From assembly GCA_964016885.1 (NCBI GenBank), contig CAXHJY010001035.1, positions 1 to 28,101 on the forward strand: a stretch of DNA of 28,101 bases. The letters run 5' to 3'. Shown one piece after another: positions 3,221-25,217 of this stretch. The notes beneath the pieces were generated by a model that saw nothing but the letters and a program-made list of their open reading frames with translations, ran no database searches and was not told the origin of the DNA. How positions within the stretch are numbered: the first letter of the stretch is position 1; each line of letters begins with the position of its first letter. This DNA comes from Eledone cirrhosa (lineage: Eukaryota). The position numbers and the translations under genes were made by a program.

Positions 3221-3628
3221 CAATTTCATTAACATATTTGACTTTCATCCTAGAACATGTGGATACAAATGTATGAAAAAAGCAATCAACACATAATGTG
3301 GAAGCTGAGAATATTTGTATTAACAGTTGTATGACTTTGAGGTTTCAAAGCCATATTAAACACATCTAATTGTACCAGATGCTTTTCAAATATATATATA
3401 TATATATAGTAATAAATGTGAAGACTAAAATCTGAAGAGGGCTTGATAAGGATAATATATATAGATATATATAAAGAACCTGTAGAGCAAATATTTATTA
3501 AAATAACTTCTGATAAAATCTGAAAGTTTCAGATCCCGTTAAGGGTGAAAGCAGCAATTCTTTGCTTAAACTTTAATCTTTTATTTTAATATATATGTAT
3601 ATATATATATATATATGAATGTATATAT

Positions 3629-3887
3629 AGTGTATTTGGTAATACACTGTATACTTAATTAAAAGCATTCTGAAGACCTTACGCTATTGTTTCAAAGTAG
3701 TGACTATGTCACTCACTTCTTTTTTCAACAAACAAAGGGAGATAAGCTGACAGATCTCTGTTTCATACTGTTGGTATTCCTCAGAGCTTAGCAAAAGAAG
3801 TAAGTGACACAGTCACTACTTTGAAACAATAGTGTAAGGTCTTCAGAATGCTTTTAATTAAGCATACAGTGTATTACCAAATACACT
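3629..3887. repeat. Foldback element: 95-bp inverted arms (3629-3723 and 3793-3887) around a 69-bp hammerhead-containing spacer, in a (TA)n context; probably Penelope-like derived
   Basis: The arms pair base-for-base (position sum 7516) with 4 transition mismatches at 3653, 3683, 3706 and 3714. Confidence 0.9.
3743..3790 (-). ncRNA. Type I hammerhead ribozyme with intact consensus
   Basis: Minus strand: UAAGCU CUGAGGA AUAC-CAACA-GUAU GAAA CAG-AGAU-CUG UC^AGCUUA. Stem I is 6 bp, the core is CUGANGA/GAAA, stems II and III are 4 bp each, and the cleavage triplet is GUC (cut between 3749 and 3748). Confidence 0.88.
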
Positions 3888-3936
3888 CATATATATACAT
3901 CGCTATTTCAGAGCACCAATTCTAATTTTATATCAT

Positions 3937-4191
3937 AATTTTACGTCCGCTTTACCCTGCTTGCAAGGGTGGGACGGGAACTGATTCTGGCTTGATTTCT
4001 ACAGCTGGATGCCCTTCCTAACACCAACCTCATTTACAGTGAGTGCTGGGTGCTTTTTTGCCGTGGCACCTCCACGACCACTTTGCAGTGGAATGATAAG
4101 GATCCCAGTCCCTATCATCTCATTTCTACAGCTGAGTAAACTGGAGCAATGTGAAATAAAGTGTCTTGCTCAAGGAAACAACACATCACCA
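3937..4191 (-). mobile_element. 5'-truncated copy of the RTE-tailed SINE
   Basis: Near-identical to 7167-7380 (tttacgtccgc...gcttgcaagggtgggacgggaactgattctgg...gtgtcttgctcaaggaaacaacacatcacc). Lacks the tRNA head. Confidence 0.8.
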
Positions 4192-7153: not shown

Positions 7154-7447
7154 TCATCATCATCATCATTTTACGTCCGCTTTTCCCTGCTTGCAAGGGT
7201 GGGACGGGAACTGATTCTGGCTTGATTTCTATAGCTGGATGCCCTTCCTAACACCAACCTCATTTACAGTGAGTGCTGGGGATGCTTTTTTGCTGTGGCA
7301 CCTCCACGACCACTTTGCAACTGAGTAAACTGGAGCAATGTGAAATAAAGTGTCTTGCTCAAGGAAACAACACATCACCCGGTCTGAGAATTGAACTCAC
7401 AACCTATCGATTGCAAGGCCAATGCTCTAACCACTAAGTCATGTGCC

Positions 7448-8359: not shown

Positions 8360-9676
8360 GCTAATTGAGGAACAGACCAGATCCACAATTGCCTTGACCA
8401 TCAGAGACGAGTGTTCTCCTACATCCCAGTTCAAAAGGGATAGCCCTTGACAGTTCTAGCTACTGCAGCAGTGGTTATAGAGTCAAGACATACAGAAGAG
8501 GCTACAGAGGACATCCCTGATGAACCAAGCACTCAATAAGAAAGAGCTCTGAGAGGAGGCCGTTTATTCTACCACTGAGAATGTGCCGTTGCTGTGCATT
8601 GCCGGTATCCAACCCCTGAAAACACAAGCACTCAATAAGAAAGAGCTCTGAGAGGTGGCCATTTATTTTACCACTGAGAATGTGCCGTTGCTGTGCATTG
8701 CCGCGATCCAACCCCTGTAAACACAAGCACTCAATAAGAAAGAGCTCTGAGAGGTGGCCATTTATTTTACCACTGAGAATGTGCCGTTGCTGTGCATTGC
8801 CGCGATCCAACCCCTGTAAACACAAGCACTCAATAAGAAAAAGCTCTGAGAGGTGGCCATTTATTTTACCACTGAGAATGTGCCGTTGCTGTGCATTGCC
8901 GCGATCCAACCCCTGAAAACACAAGCACTCAATAAGAAAGAGCTCTGAGAGGTGGCCATTTATTTTACCACTGAGAATGTGCCGTTGCTGTGCATTGCCG
9001 CGATCCAACCCCTGTAAACACAAGCACTCAATAAGAAAGAGCTCTGAGAGGTGGCCATTTATTTTACCACTGAGAATGTGCCGTTGCTGTGCATTGCCGC
9101 GATCCAACCCCTGTAAACACAAGCACTCAATAAGAAAGAGCTCTGAGAGGTGGCCATTTATTTTACCACTGAGAATGTGCCGTTGCTGTGCATTGCCGCG
9201 ATCCAACCCCTGAAAACACAAGCACTCAATAAGAAAGAGCTCTGAGAGGTGGCCATTTATTTTACCACTGAGAATGTGCCGTTGCTGTGCATTGCCGCGA
9301 TCCAACCCCTGTAAACACAAGCACTCAATAAGAAAGAGCTCTGAGAGGTGGTCATTTATTTTACCACTGAGAATGTGCCGTTGCTGTGCATTGCCGCGAT
9401 CCAACCCCTGTAAACACAAGCACTCAATAAGAAAGAGCTCTGAGAGGTGGCCATTTATTTTACCACTGAGAATGTGCCGTTGCTGTGCATTGCCGCGATC
9501 CAACCCCTGAAAACAATGCCAAAACTGGCTGCTCTAAAGACAGCCCCCAGGTAGCGATGGTCACCCCTATCAAAAGCATTTCGATGATTCAAGTTGATCA
9601 AAGTCCAATCAAAGCCAGGTTTACTCCCTACCCTCTCTATGATGTATCACATCTGTTTGGAATTGCGCATGAAGAT
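8360..9676 (-). pseudogene. Degenerate Tx1/L1-clade reverse transcriptase fragment, expanded internally by a tandem array
   Basis: Minus translation across frameshifts gives YIIERVGSKPG..LINLNHRNAFDRGDHRYLGAVFRAASFGIVFRGWIAAMHS...INGHLSELFLIECLVHQGCPL*PLLYVLTL*PLL. This fits the L1/Tx1 pattern LD.EKAFDRV.H.YL...GF...W...NG..S..F...VRQGCPLSPLLY.L..EPL. Confidence 0.85.
8526..9515. repeat. Tandem array of exactly 10 x 99 bp with a 3-unit (297 bp) higher-order period
   Basis: Units start caagcactcaataag at 8526+99n. The diagnostic base in cccctg[A/T]aaaca runs A,T,T,A,T,T,A,T,T,A (8619 to 9510). Confidence 0.97.
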
Positions 9677-12503: not shown

Positions 12504-13074
12504 TCATCATCATCATCATCATCATCATCATCGTTTAACGTCCGTGTTCCATGCTTGCATGGGTTTGGACGGGAGTTTACCCACTTGAAGCAAGAGTGGT
12601 TGTCTTGCTCGCATAGGACTGTCTGGCGGGTTTTCTACAGTTGGATGCCCTTCCTAACACCAACCACATTTACAGTGTGGGGCTGGGAGGTTTTTACCGT
12701 GTTGCCTACACGGCCACATTACAGCGTGGACTGTCTGGCAGGTTTTCTACAGCTGGATGCCCTTCCTAACACCAACCACATTTACAGTGTGGGGCTGGGA
12801 GGTTTTTACCGTGTTGCCTACACGGTCACATTACAGCGTGGACTGTGTGTTTTTTTTTCGTGACACCTACACGATCTCATTTGTTTCGGCCTGGATTTTG
12901 TGGCACCAACATAACTTTACATAGAAGGGGGCGGTGTGGATGGGGTGGGGGTGGTGGGACGGGGGTGTATTTTGTTAGAGATGCCTACTGACTGTAGTGG
13001 GTTTTACTTTGTATTTAGGTAACGCGGGTCTTCTCTGTTACTGAGTACCGCCAAAGGTCTCGGTCCAGTGACAT
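12504..13074 (-). mobile_element. RTE LINE 3' fragment (related subfamily) with a 112-bp tandem duplication in its 3' UTR
   Basis: The minus strand reads MSLDRDLWRYSVTEKTRVT* (compare MTHDRDFWRHAVIQGTR in the long copy). It shares the UTR motif ggatgcccttcctaacaccaacc and has a (GAT)n tail at 12504-12532. Units start at 12616, 12728 and 12840. Confidence 0.85.
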
Positions 13075-22202: not shown

Positions 22203-24854
22203 TCATCATCATCATCATCACCGTTTTACGTCCGTTCTTCCACGCTAGCATGGGTTAGACGGGTTGTCCTGTTGTGGGCAGTGTCTGGTCGGCTGACCAT
22301 GCCTTGCTCATACAGGAACTGATCTGGCTTGATTTCTACAGCTGGATGCCCTTCCTAACACCAACCTCATTTACAGTGAGTGCTGGGTGCTTTTTCGTGG
22401 CGCCTACACGTCCACTTTACAGTGTGGGCTGGGTGCTTTTTTGCCGTGGCACCTCCACGACCACCTTGCGGTGGGGGGGGGGGCATATTGTTTATATGCT
22501 TCAGCATGTACCCATGGGAGGTCGGGTACCCTGTATTACTGCGTGACGCCAGAAGTCACGGTCGTGTGTCATTGACTTTGAGAGGTGTAGTTGGGTAAGG
22601 TCGGCTTTTATCACCTCATCCCAAGTCATCTTGGGTCTCCCCACTCCGCGGTTTCCATCAACTTCTAGTGCTCTGCACCTTTTTATGCAGCTGTCATCCT
22701 TCATACGCATCACATGTCCATACCAGCGTAACCGCCTCTCCTGCACGCAGCATTTGATTCCTCTTATGCTCAGTCTCTCTCTCAATTCATTTATGCTTTG
22801 TCGTTCACGTATATTACTGTTACACATCCATCGGAGCATGCAGGCTTCGTTTCTCTCTAATCTACGTAGGTCTTCCACCTTCAGCGCCCAGGTCTCACTA
22901 CCATGCAACATCGCTGTTCGGATACACGCATCATACAGTCTGCCTTTCATTCTGAGGGAGAAGCCTTTTGCAGCTAGCAGTGGTAGTAGTTCCCTAAACT
23001 TCTTCCATCCCGTTCTTACCCTAGTTATTGTACTTTCTGAGCACCCACCTCCGTTGCTAATTCGGTCACCTAGGTAGCAGAAGCTGTCTACTGTTTCTAC
23101 AGGGCCCTCCCAGAGATTGGTGGTACTTGTTTCCTGTGGCTGTTTGCTTGCTGTTTCAGCACAGCTGCTGCATGTGAATCCTACATTCTTAATTAAGCTT
23201 CCTGAGATCCCGCTACATCTCTTGTGTCCCATTGTTTGCATTTGGGGCAAAGAATGGAGTTCCTACCTACACCTTTCCTACATACTGAGCAAGGCCATTT
23301 CCCTGAGGGGATCTGGGTTCTGTTTTCTCGTCTACTTATAAGGACCTTAGTCTTTGTCATGTTGACTTTGAGGCCCTTTCTCTCTAGTCCCTGCTTCCAG
23401 GTTTGGAATTTATTCTCTAGTTCTACCATAGATTCAGCTATGAGTGCGAGGTCATCAGCATACAGGAGTTCCCATGGGCATCCGGTCTTAAACTCCTCCG
23501 TTATTGCCTGCAGGACTATGATGAACAGGAGAGGGCTAAGAACAGAGCCCTGGTGGACCCCAACCTGTACGCTAAATTCCTCGTTATACTCATTGCCAAT
23601 CCTAACTTTGCTGACTGCTCCCCTATACATGGCTTGTACCGCTTTCACAAGCCATTCATCTACTCCTAGTTTTCTAAGAGCCCACCAGATTACTGCACGT
23701 GGAACTCTGTCAAAGGCTTTCTCAAGGTCGACAAATGCCAAGTAGAGTGGCTTACTTTTAGCTAGGTACTTTTCCTGTAATTGCCTCACAAGGAAGAGCG
23801 CATCAGTGGTGCCTTTCCCTGGAACAAACCCAAATTGCATCTCGTCTATATTCACCCGGTCCCTAATCAGCTGTGCTATAACTCTTTCTGTTACTTTCAT
23901 GACCTGGTCCATCAACTTTATACCTCTATAGTTTCCTCTATCTAGTGCATCGCCTTTACCTTTGTAGCAGTTGACAATGATGCTACTGCACCAATCTTTT
24001 GGTATGGCCCCCTCTAGTATTACCTGGTTAACGATACGTGTGGTTATAGTGTGACCTACAGACCCAGATGCCTTCAGCATCTCGGCAGCTATACCCGATG
24101 GACCGGTTGCCTTCCCTATCTTCATATCTCTGATTGCCTTACTTACTACGCTGCCGCTGACTTGTACTGCTGGTCCCTCTATAGGGTCTACGTGGGGTAG
24201 GGTCTCTTCTTCCCATGCATTCTCCTCATTTAGTAATCTATCATAATGACTCTTCCATGCATCTTTCTTCTCAGCACTTGTGAGGGCAAGCTCACCTTTA
24301 TCATTCCGGATACACTTCTCTCCAATGACATCACAACTATCTCTGACACACTGCCTCGCAATCTTGAATACCTCCTGTTTCTGGTCCTCACGTTGTAAAA
24401 CATGCTTGAATTTTCTATCCTCTGCTTCCCTCCTAGCTAAGTATACTTGTCGCCTAGCTTCCCTCTTGGTCTCTATGTAATGTACCCTGCTCCCCCCGTT
24501 CTTCCATTCTTTCCATGCCTGTCTCTTGGCCTTGACTGCTTCATCTACCTTATTGTTCCACCACCAAGTCACTCTCCTCCTGCTTGAGGTCTTACTCCAG
24601 CCACAAACCTCATCCGTCGCCTCTAGTAAGTTATTTTTTAGGAACTCCCAGTTCTCTTCTACGTTAAATGTCTCTATCTGTTCTTCTTTACTGTCGTAGG
24701 CGTTGAGTAAAATATCTTTAAATCTGTTACTGGTTGAGGGGACTTTCAGCTTCCAGATCTTTCTTCTCCAGGTTGGCCTCTGTTTCAGGGCTCGTCTAGT
24801 TCTGACCGTGAGGTCGCTGACAACTAAGCTATGTTGGGATGTACATTCCTCACT
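22203..24854 (-). mobile_element. RTE-clade non-LTR retrotransposon (LINE), 5'-truncated, young copy
   Basis: The minus frame is open from 24854 (SEECTSQHSLVVSDL, end of the APE endonuclease) through RT motifs (NYRGIKL, QFGF.PG, FVDLEKAFD, GVHQGSVLSPLLF, LLYADD) to the RTE C-terminus (RRLRWYGHVMR, GRPK.TW, DR..WR) and a stop at 22501. The 3' UTR ends in a (GAT)n tail at ~22203. (TA)n flanks both sides. Confidence 0.95.
22501..24854 (-). pseudogene. RTE ORF (endonuclease tail, reverse transcriptase, PHD-like finger, C-terminal domain) with one 1-bp frameshift near 23227/23228
   Basis: ORFs 23193..24572 and 22501..23250 join as ...CPKCKQW[x]HKRCSG... if one base is restored after TGG G. I saw no internal stops. 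Confidence 0.9.
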
Positions 24855-24917
24855 AATATATATATATATATTTCGTTTCTGAATTTGTTTAGCAAGATTC
24901 TTCGTGTGTTGAAACCG

Positions 24918-25217
24918 ATATTGTTATACTTTGGGAGGGTCATGTTGCCAATAAGAAACACACGCACCAGTTGCTTTCACTTCAATTTATTATAATAAAT
25001 TTATAATAAATTTATAAATTTCTGGTTGGTTGGTTGGTTCCTCAACCAGATAGTTGTTTATATATTGTCATATATAAACAACTATCTGGTTGAGGAACCA
25101 ACCAACCAACCAGAAATTTATAAATTTATTATAAATTTATTATAATAAATTGAAGTGAAAGCAACTGGTGCGTGTGTTTCTTATTGGCAACATGACCCTC
25201 CCAAAGTATAACAATAT
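24918..25217. repeat. Perfect 300-bp palindrome (148-bp arms, 4-nt spacer TGTC at 25066-25069)
   Basis: Arms 24918-25065 and 25070-25217 are reverse complements. The left arm extends ~45 bp further to a (TA)n tract, and the right arm runs into (TA)n. Confidence 0.95.

Follow-up and report, generated by a model that had tools for sequence, protein, structure and literature searches.

Is a hammerhead ribozyme in the loop of a long RNA foldback a mobile or selected unit in its own right, or does it reflect the way in which a larger family inserts into DNA? The question is raised by positions 3629-3887 of a 28,101-nt stretch of Eledone cirrhosa DNA (assembly GCA_964016885.1, contig CAXHJY010001035.1, positions 1 to 28,101 of the forward strand), the whole of which is called the window here. 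A recount reproduced the inverted repeat described in an earlier note on this DNA: two 95-bp arms (3629-3723 and 3793-3887) differ at 4 positions and enclose a 69-nt spacer. All four mismatches are transitions, three of which would pair as G.U on the minus strand and one on the plus strand.

The type I hammerhead that the note placed on the minus strand of the spacer was also recovered. Its stem I (6 bp) pairs 3790-3785 with 3748-3743, the core strands CUGAGGA and GAAA occupy 3784-3778 and 3764-3761, and stems II and III (4 bp each) are closed by the loops CAACA and AGAU; the predicted cut follows the GUC triplet, between 3749 and 3748. The motif has the CUGANGA and GAAA strands, the A15.1-U16.1 pair, the NUH triplet, the three helices and the open helix I of the type I class. 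Across both strands of the window the hammerhead descriptor matches only once, at 3743-3790, against a chance expectation of 0.01 (loose) and 0 (strict) matches per window in 100 third-order Markov simulations. The curated Rfam hammerhead models, with which the earlier note had proposed to scan the region, gave no match in the whole window (E <= 1) or in 3700-3820 (E <= 10). The Rfam matches obtained were miRNA-like hairpins and microsatellites only, none of them at gathering score. The class assignment therefore rests on the descriptor together with covariation.

The motif belongs to an abundant family. Within the 3.0-Gb assembly, the 48-nt hammerhead sequence has 98 exact matches, the core pattern with stem II left free has 1,291, and a 38-mer from the arm has 856 (exact); the reversed control gave 0 in each case. 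The unit of this family is 317 nt long, which is the spacing between two cleavage sites in locus L017. Unit positions are counted from the cleavage site, and copies were mapped to a natural 488-nt stretch of the same locus (L017:1229-1716; GC 34%, longest ATG ORF 28 aa). The unit falls within the definition of non-LTR retrozymes, which are non-coding, ~170-400 nt long, below 45% in GC and equipped with a type I hammerhead. Sister subfamilies, ~80-93% identical, share its layout, and a period of ~313-318 nt is kept by several of them; two consecutive hammerheads 313-318 nt apart were found at 3 loci with the strict pattern. Head-to-tail arrangement is evident in the arm-ascertained sample described below, in which 43 of 126 arms read across the unit junction into the preceding unit, and in L017, L112 and L257, where extension of the arm upstream enters another copy of the unit. 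Most copies comprise 1-1.5 units, and long tandem arrays were not seen; the window copy has less than one unit per arm. Directly upstream of one family copy, at L129:1461-2800, lie ~35 copies of a 38-nt unit that resembles unit positions 113-142.

The putative helices of the family hammerhead are supported by covariation. In an alignment of 26 copies, hand-picked for diversity, 92.8% of the cells in stem II and the stem I extension are paired, with compensatory changes in both and two-sided changes in 10 of 28 pairs. The covariation score is 0.286, compared with 0.164 after shuffling (0 of 500 shuffles as high) and 0.08-0.11 for slid partners, in copies that are related to one another; taken by itself, the number of pairs with two-sided changes does not reach significance (44 of 500 shuffles). 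In 12 of the 26 copies, stem II lacks its first pair. The core, which belonged to the pattern used for selection, is invariant in all of them.

Mapping of the window onto the unit showed that the insertion is larger than the ~260 bp of the earlier note. It spans 3611-3929 and consists of two 5'-truncated unit copies placed back to back, with the following features.

3743-3790, minus strand: type I hammerhead core with stems I-III (descriptor search, 98 exact genomic copies, covariation across subfamilies)
3611-3793, minus strand: 5'-truncated copy, unit positions 273-317 and then 1-138, with a "short" 3' end in (TA)n (BLAST to L017:1229-1716)
3793-3929, plus strand: inverted 5'-truncated copy without a hammerhead, unit positions 26 to ~171, with a "long" 3' end (BLAST to L017:1229-1716)
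3793, no strand: inversion junction, a 1-nt overlap of the two copies, confined to one locus
3722-3741, minus strand: 3' strand of an extended stem I, the 5' partner of which was removed by the inversion (native fold, alignment and window fold)
3897-3929, plus strand: one-sided "tail" of ~33 nt that separates the short 3' end from the long one and is not part of the inverted repeat (bimodal 3' ends)
3589-3629, no strand: (TA)n microsatellite on the left side, shared in part with the TA-like terminus of the minus copy ((TA)n is common near family ends)

The (TA)n at 3589-3629 is probably the target site, and the earlier description of a Penelope- or retrozyme-type type I hammerhead in a (TA)n context is upheld. 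A target-site duplication was not readable in the (TA)n flank, and the exact base of the short end is blurred because this end sits in a TA-like stretch.

Two samples were used to examine insertions across the family. The first (hammerhead-ascertained) comprises all 89 loci that carry the 98 exact hammerheads, and the second (arm-ascertained) comprises 83 insertions, all from contig C1, in which the first 100 of the 856 arm matches lie; with 7 loci shared between the samples and one duplicate removed, the pool contains 163 insertions. About 72% of them (118 of 163) are inverted, and in 115 of these 118 both 3' ends point outward. The outer ends fall into 123 short ones (unit ~138), 115 long ones (168-171) and 40 others, the short and long ends being ~33 nt apart. 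Long and short ends are paired in 68 of the 78 classifiable inverted copies (binomial test against 0.5, P ~ 1e-11), that is, in 35 of 42 in the hammerhead-ascertained sample and in 33 of 38 in the arm-ascertained sample, which has 7 loci in common with the first. The window insertion, with a short end on its minus copy and a long end on its plus copy, is typical of the family. As a raw count, taken without comparison to the genome background, 179 of the 278 outer 3' ends have (TA)n at a distance of 20 nt or less. At five loci (L293, L282, L106, L097 and L108), an insertion contains a piece that extends barely beyond a 33-45-nt tail, which is inverted in the first three; such tail-only pieces are expected if one cDNA began at the long start site and went no further than the short one.

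These end statistics bear on the possibility that the foldback formed after insertion, through replication snap-back or repair, or that it is a DNA-transposon MITE or foldback element. The unit does contain an intrinsic hairpin, the extended stem I, and the two window arms have in common two private variants, at which 109 of 111 and 112 of 113 family arms carry the other base; both facts would suit such an origin. A snap-back, however, would not yield two different fixed 3' ends that are paired long with short in 68 of 78 copies, and the family copies have neither the fixed terminal repeats nor the fixed interior that a MITE requires. The end statistics already largely refute this explanation, and we regard it as extremely improbable. 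Sharing of rare variants between arms extends beyond the window: 22 of 341 are common to both arms within loci (11 of 50 loci), compared with 277 of 31,014 between loci. Both arms seem to derive from one source, and gene conversion could be an alternative cause of the shared variants.

The inner junctions speak to the proposal of the earlier note, in which the ~260-bp arm-ribozyme-arm hairpin was itself a mobile or selected unit, yielding a nicked but tethered dsRNA. Several observations agree with it: the core is intact with three fully paired stems, hammerhead-in-loop layouts recur as a class, and a few junctions recur at independent loci (175/14, for example, at four). Yet there are 111 distinct inner junctions among the 118 inverted insertions, and the few recurrent ones that were inspected sit on microhomologies. 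A genome-wide search for the 30-mer that spans the window junction, allowing up to 1 mismatch, gave a single match, and hence there is no fixed hairpin unit. The note had itself named randomly placed inversion points, together with a lack of transcription, as a refutation in advance, and on the first of these two counts the variability across the genomic copies goes against the hairpin. Many genomic matches seem to share a boundary at query position 95, but this reflects the junction of the query itself and is not a boundary of the family. A junction hot spot at the ribozyme, suggested by 13 of 22 hammerhead-free arms that start at unit 6-26 in the hammerhead-ascertained sample, was also rejected, given that the stops of the arm-ascertained sample reach only ~1.5-fold the level of their neighbours there (16 of 106).

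The strand bias of the mismatches, for which the note itself allowed that chance might suffice, is compatible with chance. Three G.U wobbles among four transitions give a two-sided P of 0.63, and across 30 inverted copies with a hammerhead on one arm only, the window included, the arm mismatches on the ribozyme strand are G.U in 39 cases and A.C in 37. This near parity indicates that there is no selection on the duplex strand.

In addition, the inversion is predicted to make the hammerhead fold less favourable, which further argues against self-processing. Because the inversion junction of the window lies at unit 273, the 18-bp stem I extension of the family lacks its 5' strand, so that "intact" is a fitting description of the 48-nt core but not of this extension. 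In the window fold (ViennaRNA), the freed 3' strand of the extension captures the cleavage-site strand. The hammerhead fold is predicted to lie 5.8 kcal/mol above the minimum in the window, compared with 0.7 in the native context, and the predicted pairing probability of stem I is 0.00 compared with 0.67. When the 98 exact copies are folded in their own contexts, the window copy ranks 91st, and 80 copies are within 2 kcal/mol. These figures come from secondary-structure prediction, which takes no account of Mg2+, tertiary contacts or help from proteins, and they suggest that the hammerhead fold is favourable in most other copies and unfavourable in the window copy. The latter is predicted to cut poorly and, to judge from these folds, is most likely a dead-end product.

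The earlier note also envisaged an intron scenario with a candidate exon upstream. The segment 4442-4579 has no homologue among longer proteins in a weak search, which leaves the exon without support, and a Pfam scan of 82 of the 174 window ORFs found no host gene, so that the intron scenario is likewise unsupported. The matches in that scan were a LINE-type RT at 23196-24923 and, at 8505-9533, two doubtful ones driven by repeats. With the single junction, the absence of strand bias, the predicted loss of stem I pairing and the missing host gene all against it, the arm-ribozyme-arm hairpin is a very unlikely explanation of the locus.

We consider it highly probable that the window instead holds one insertion, likely made by a Penelope-like RT with a GIY-YIG endonuclease, in which two 5'-truncated copies of the 317-nt retrozyme stand back to back. 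Direct observation of the family covers the length and abundance of the unit, the fixed positions of its two 3' ends, the variability of the inner junction and the flanking (TA)n; the remaining steps may be pictured as follows. A tandem or circular unit RNA would be bound by a Penelope-like protein; a tandem or circular template is proposed because, in the arm-ascertained sample, 43 of 126 arms continue past the unit junction and, of the 106 arms that reach stem I, 90 pass the cleavage site. As these 90 arms run through the cleavage site, the templates would be mostly uncut or religated. Both target strands would then be nicked in a TA-rich site, and cDNA synthesis would be primed by each nicked strand at one of two start sites inside the RNA, which lie ~33 nt apart. 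Both cDNAs would halt at variable points and be joined with little or no microhomology, giving a foldback whose 3' ends face outward and which has a tail at only one end. In such a scheme, the hammerhead would lie in the loop only because one cDNA crossed the ribozyme and the other halted 26 nt short of the cut site. The ribozyme itself may be conserved for the RNA life cycle of the family, likely for monomer release and circularisation.

The cDNA stops at unit 156-182, about one unit upstream of the long start, number 16 of 59 at risk, corresponding to a rate of 0.010 per nt against ~0.002-0.004 in most neighbouring bins. Only the region 156-182 is claimed, because a one-base difference in the reference partly collapses stops onto 175. 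The excess fits a full turn on a circle or a collision with the second priming site, and it is not proof of either. We tentatively hypothesize, at somewhat less than an even chance, that the family is a genomic record of a protein-free ribozyme circle written into DNA, in which a dimeric Penelope-like protein uses two start sites on a 317-nt circular or tandem RNA when priming from both target strands. Such a dimer with two starts would explain the pairing of long with short ends, the shared arm variants, the read-through of the cleavage site and the stop excess one unit upstream.

This scheme draws on what has been described for Penelope-like elements. Their insertions, as illustrated by Craig et al. 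2021 (PMC8557442, Fig. 2), include partial tandems and an adjacent inverted 5'-truncated copy, carry a 30-40-bp tail that is often at one end only, and are biased toward microsatellites. The purified Penelope-like protein studied in vitro by Frangieh et al. 2024 (PMC11167929) nicks AT-rich DNA and extends both target strands, and its RT starts at two adjacent internal RNA sites whose spacing equals the tail; the same report describes a predicted dimer and insertion that is independent of hammerhead cleavage. The family resembles the insertion units of endonuclease-positive elements, as these two papers present them, in its 5' truncation, partial tandems, inverted 5'-truncated neighbour copy, 30-40-bp tail on one end, TA-rich or microsatellite targets and hammerhead near the end. 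Unlike those elements, its unit is 317 nt long and without RT or GIY-YIG coding. With the minimal hammerheads of Penelope elements, in the account of Cervera and de la Pena 2014 (PMC4209133), it has in common the type I topology, large covarying families per genome and motif pairs 100-700 bp apart on opposite strands. In contrast to minimal hammerheads, however, the unit's motif is of the canonical type, combining a long stem I with a stem III of 4 bp, and its stable helix III is such that it could fold as a monomer.

On the retrozyme side, non-LTR retrozymes are hammerhead repeats of ~170-400 nt that are reported to be expressed as circles in animals, including a mussel (Cervera and de la Pena 2020, PMC7229834). 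A recent preprint (bioRxiv 10.64898/2026.07.22.740005) argues from co-occurrence and pLTR similarity that retrozymes are non-autonomous Penelope derivatives and records cleavage in only 1 of 9 dimers tested. By the descriptions in both sources, the family is like metazoan non-LTR retrozymes in its low-GC non-coding unit of ~300 nt, canonical type I hammerhead, head-to-tail repeats, many dispersed copies and co-occurring Penelope-like elements. It differs from the retrozymes described there, for which long tandem arrays are typical, in consisting mostly of 1-1.5 units, and from metazoan non-LTR retrozymes in that ~72% of its insertions are inverted with Penelope-type tails. Where these sources treat the retrozyme-Penelope link, they base it on co-occurrence and sequence similarity and not on insertion ends. 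We infer that the 317-nt family is a new member of the non-LTR retrozymes, mobilised by Penelope-like elements. What is particular to it is a coding-free 317-nt unit with the full Penelope-type insertion signature. In the literature consulted, which was mostly open-access, we found no report of a cephalopod retrozyme or of counts of long and short end pairing.

A different reading of the same anatomy would make the unit part of an autonomous Penelope-like element still to be found, namely its pLTR or 3' end, with the copies as its ordinary truncated tail ends. The insertion anatomy is the same as that of autonomous elements in the figures of PMC8557442, other retrozymes, from Xenopus, are reported to match pLTRs (bioRxiv 10.64898/2026.07.22.740005), and our comparison covered only 16 long-ORF loci. 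These points are set against the arms that extend upstream into another copy of the unit (43 of 126; L017, L112, L257) and the period of ~313-318 nt kept across several subfamilies. For the search itself, 150 of 10,596 candidate GIY-YIG matches were scored and 40 loci examined; five long ORFs that were examined combine RT motifs with a CxxxxCxxC linker and GIY-YIG. Among 17 terminal segments taken from 16 long-ORF loci, no pLTR of an autonomous element matched the unit, the scores being no better than those of shuffles. None of the Penelope-protein matches in 5 family loci is contiguous with the unit, and no RT plus GIY-YIG ORF lies within or contiguous with it. The unit is not an autonomous Penelope-like element. 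The autonomous elements seen in the E. cirrhosa assembly carry different hammerheads, of the minimal and U3-A8 forms, and we judge the pLTR reading to be unlikely. Two candidate partners were rejected: L140, where a GIY-YIG match adjoins a sister-subfamily copy, and L274, where a copy adjoins a long-ORF element, both proved to be separate TA-flanked insertions.

The single window copy is of little importance, and it is the family that provides a clean test set. It bears on retrozyme mobility, which is still argued from co-occurrence and sequence similarity, and on the origin of the inverted, one-tailed insertions of Penelope-like elements. With more than 1,000 short copies, two fixed 3' ends and strong pairing, both the two-primer model and mobilisation in trans become directly testable in vitro. 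If the dimer with two start sites is true, the family would provide insertion-level evidence that Penelope-like elements mobilise animal retrozymes in trans, as well as a minimal cargo RNA.

Minimal hammerhead-like motifs were observed in the terminal regions of several GIY-YIG loci, among them L159:7431 (minus), L165:2576 (minus), L178:6030 (plus) and L150:2213 (plus). In several Penelope-like families these motifs have a U3-A8 core variant and a palindromic ACCGGU helix III, and in one family also A13C; the U3-A8 variant is reported from schistosome elements (PMC4209133). Unit positions 20-60 (window 3793-3830, plus strand) contain UUGAAAA, a perfect hairpin and (G/A)AAAC, spaced as in the U3-A8 minimal hammerheads, and this motif is possibly a relic of a parent pLTR.

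A single difference separates window 3719-3793, hammerhead included, from a contig of a second organism, which hints that another species has the family too. The family is also present in three contig sets of unrecorded kind, which are uninformative for expression and in which no listed contig bridges the window junction.

The window contains other repeats. Directly left of the insertion, 3420-3596 is a second short dispersed repeat that is matched in 50 sampled loci; its copies have short and long 3' ends in (TA)n and form inverted pairs, and it is probably another Penelope-type family that uses the same targets. Adjoining the long end, 3932-4190 is an abundant SINE-like repeat that is matched in 67 sampled loci and has further copies at 7162-7379, 12622-12836 and 22312-22424. 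Ten 99-bp tandem units (98% identity, open frame on the minus strand) make up 8526-9515, and the two Pfam matches of this array look repeat-driven. Beside the LINE-type RT ORF (23196-24923), a perfect 148-bp inverted repeat with a 4-nt spacer occupies 24918-25217 and is possibly another inverted retro-insertion or an assembly fold-back.
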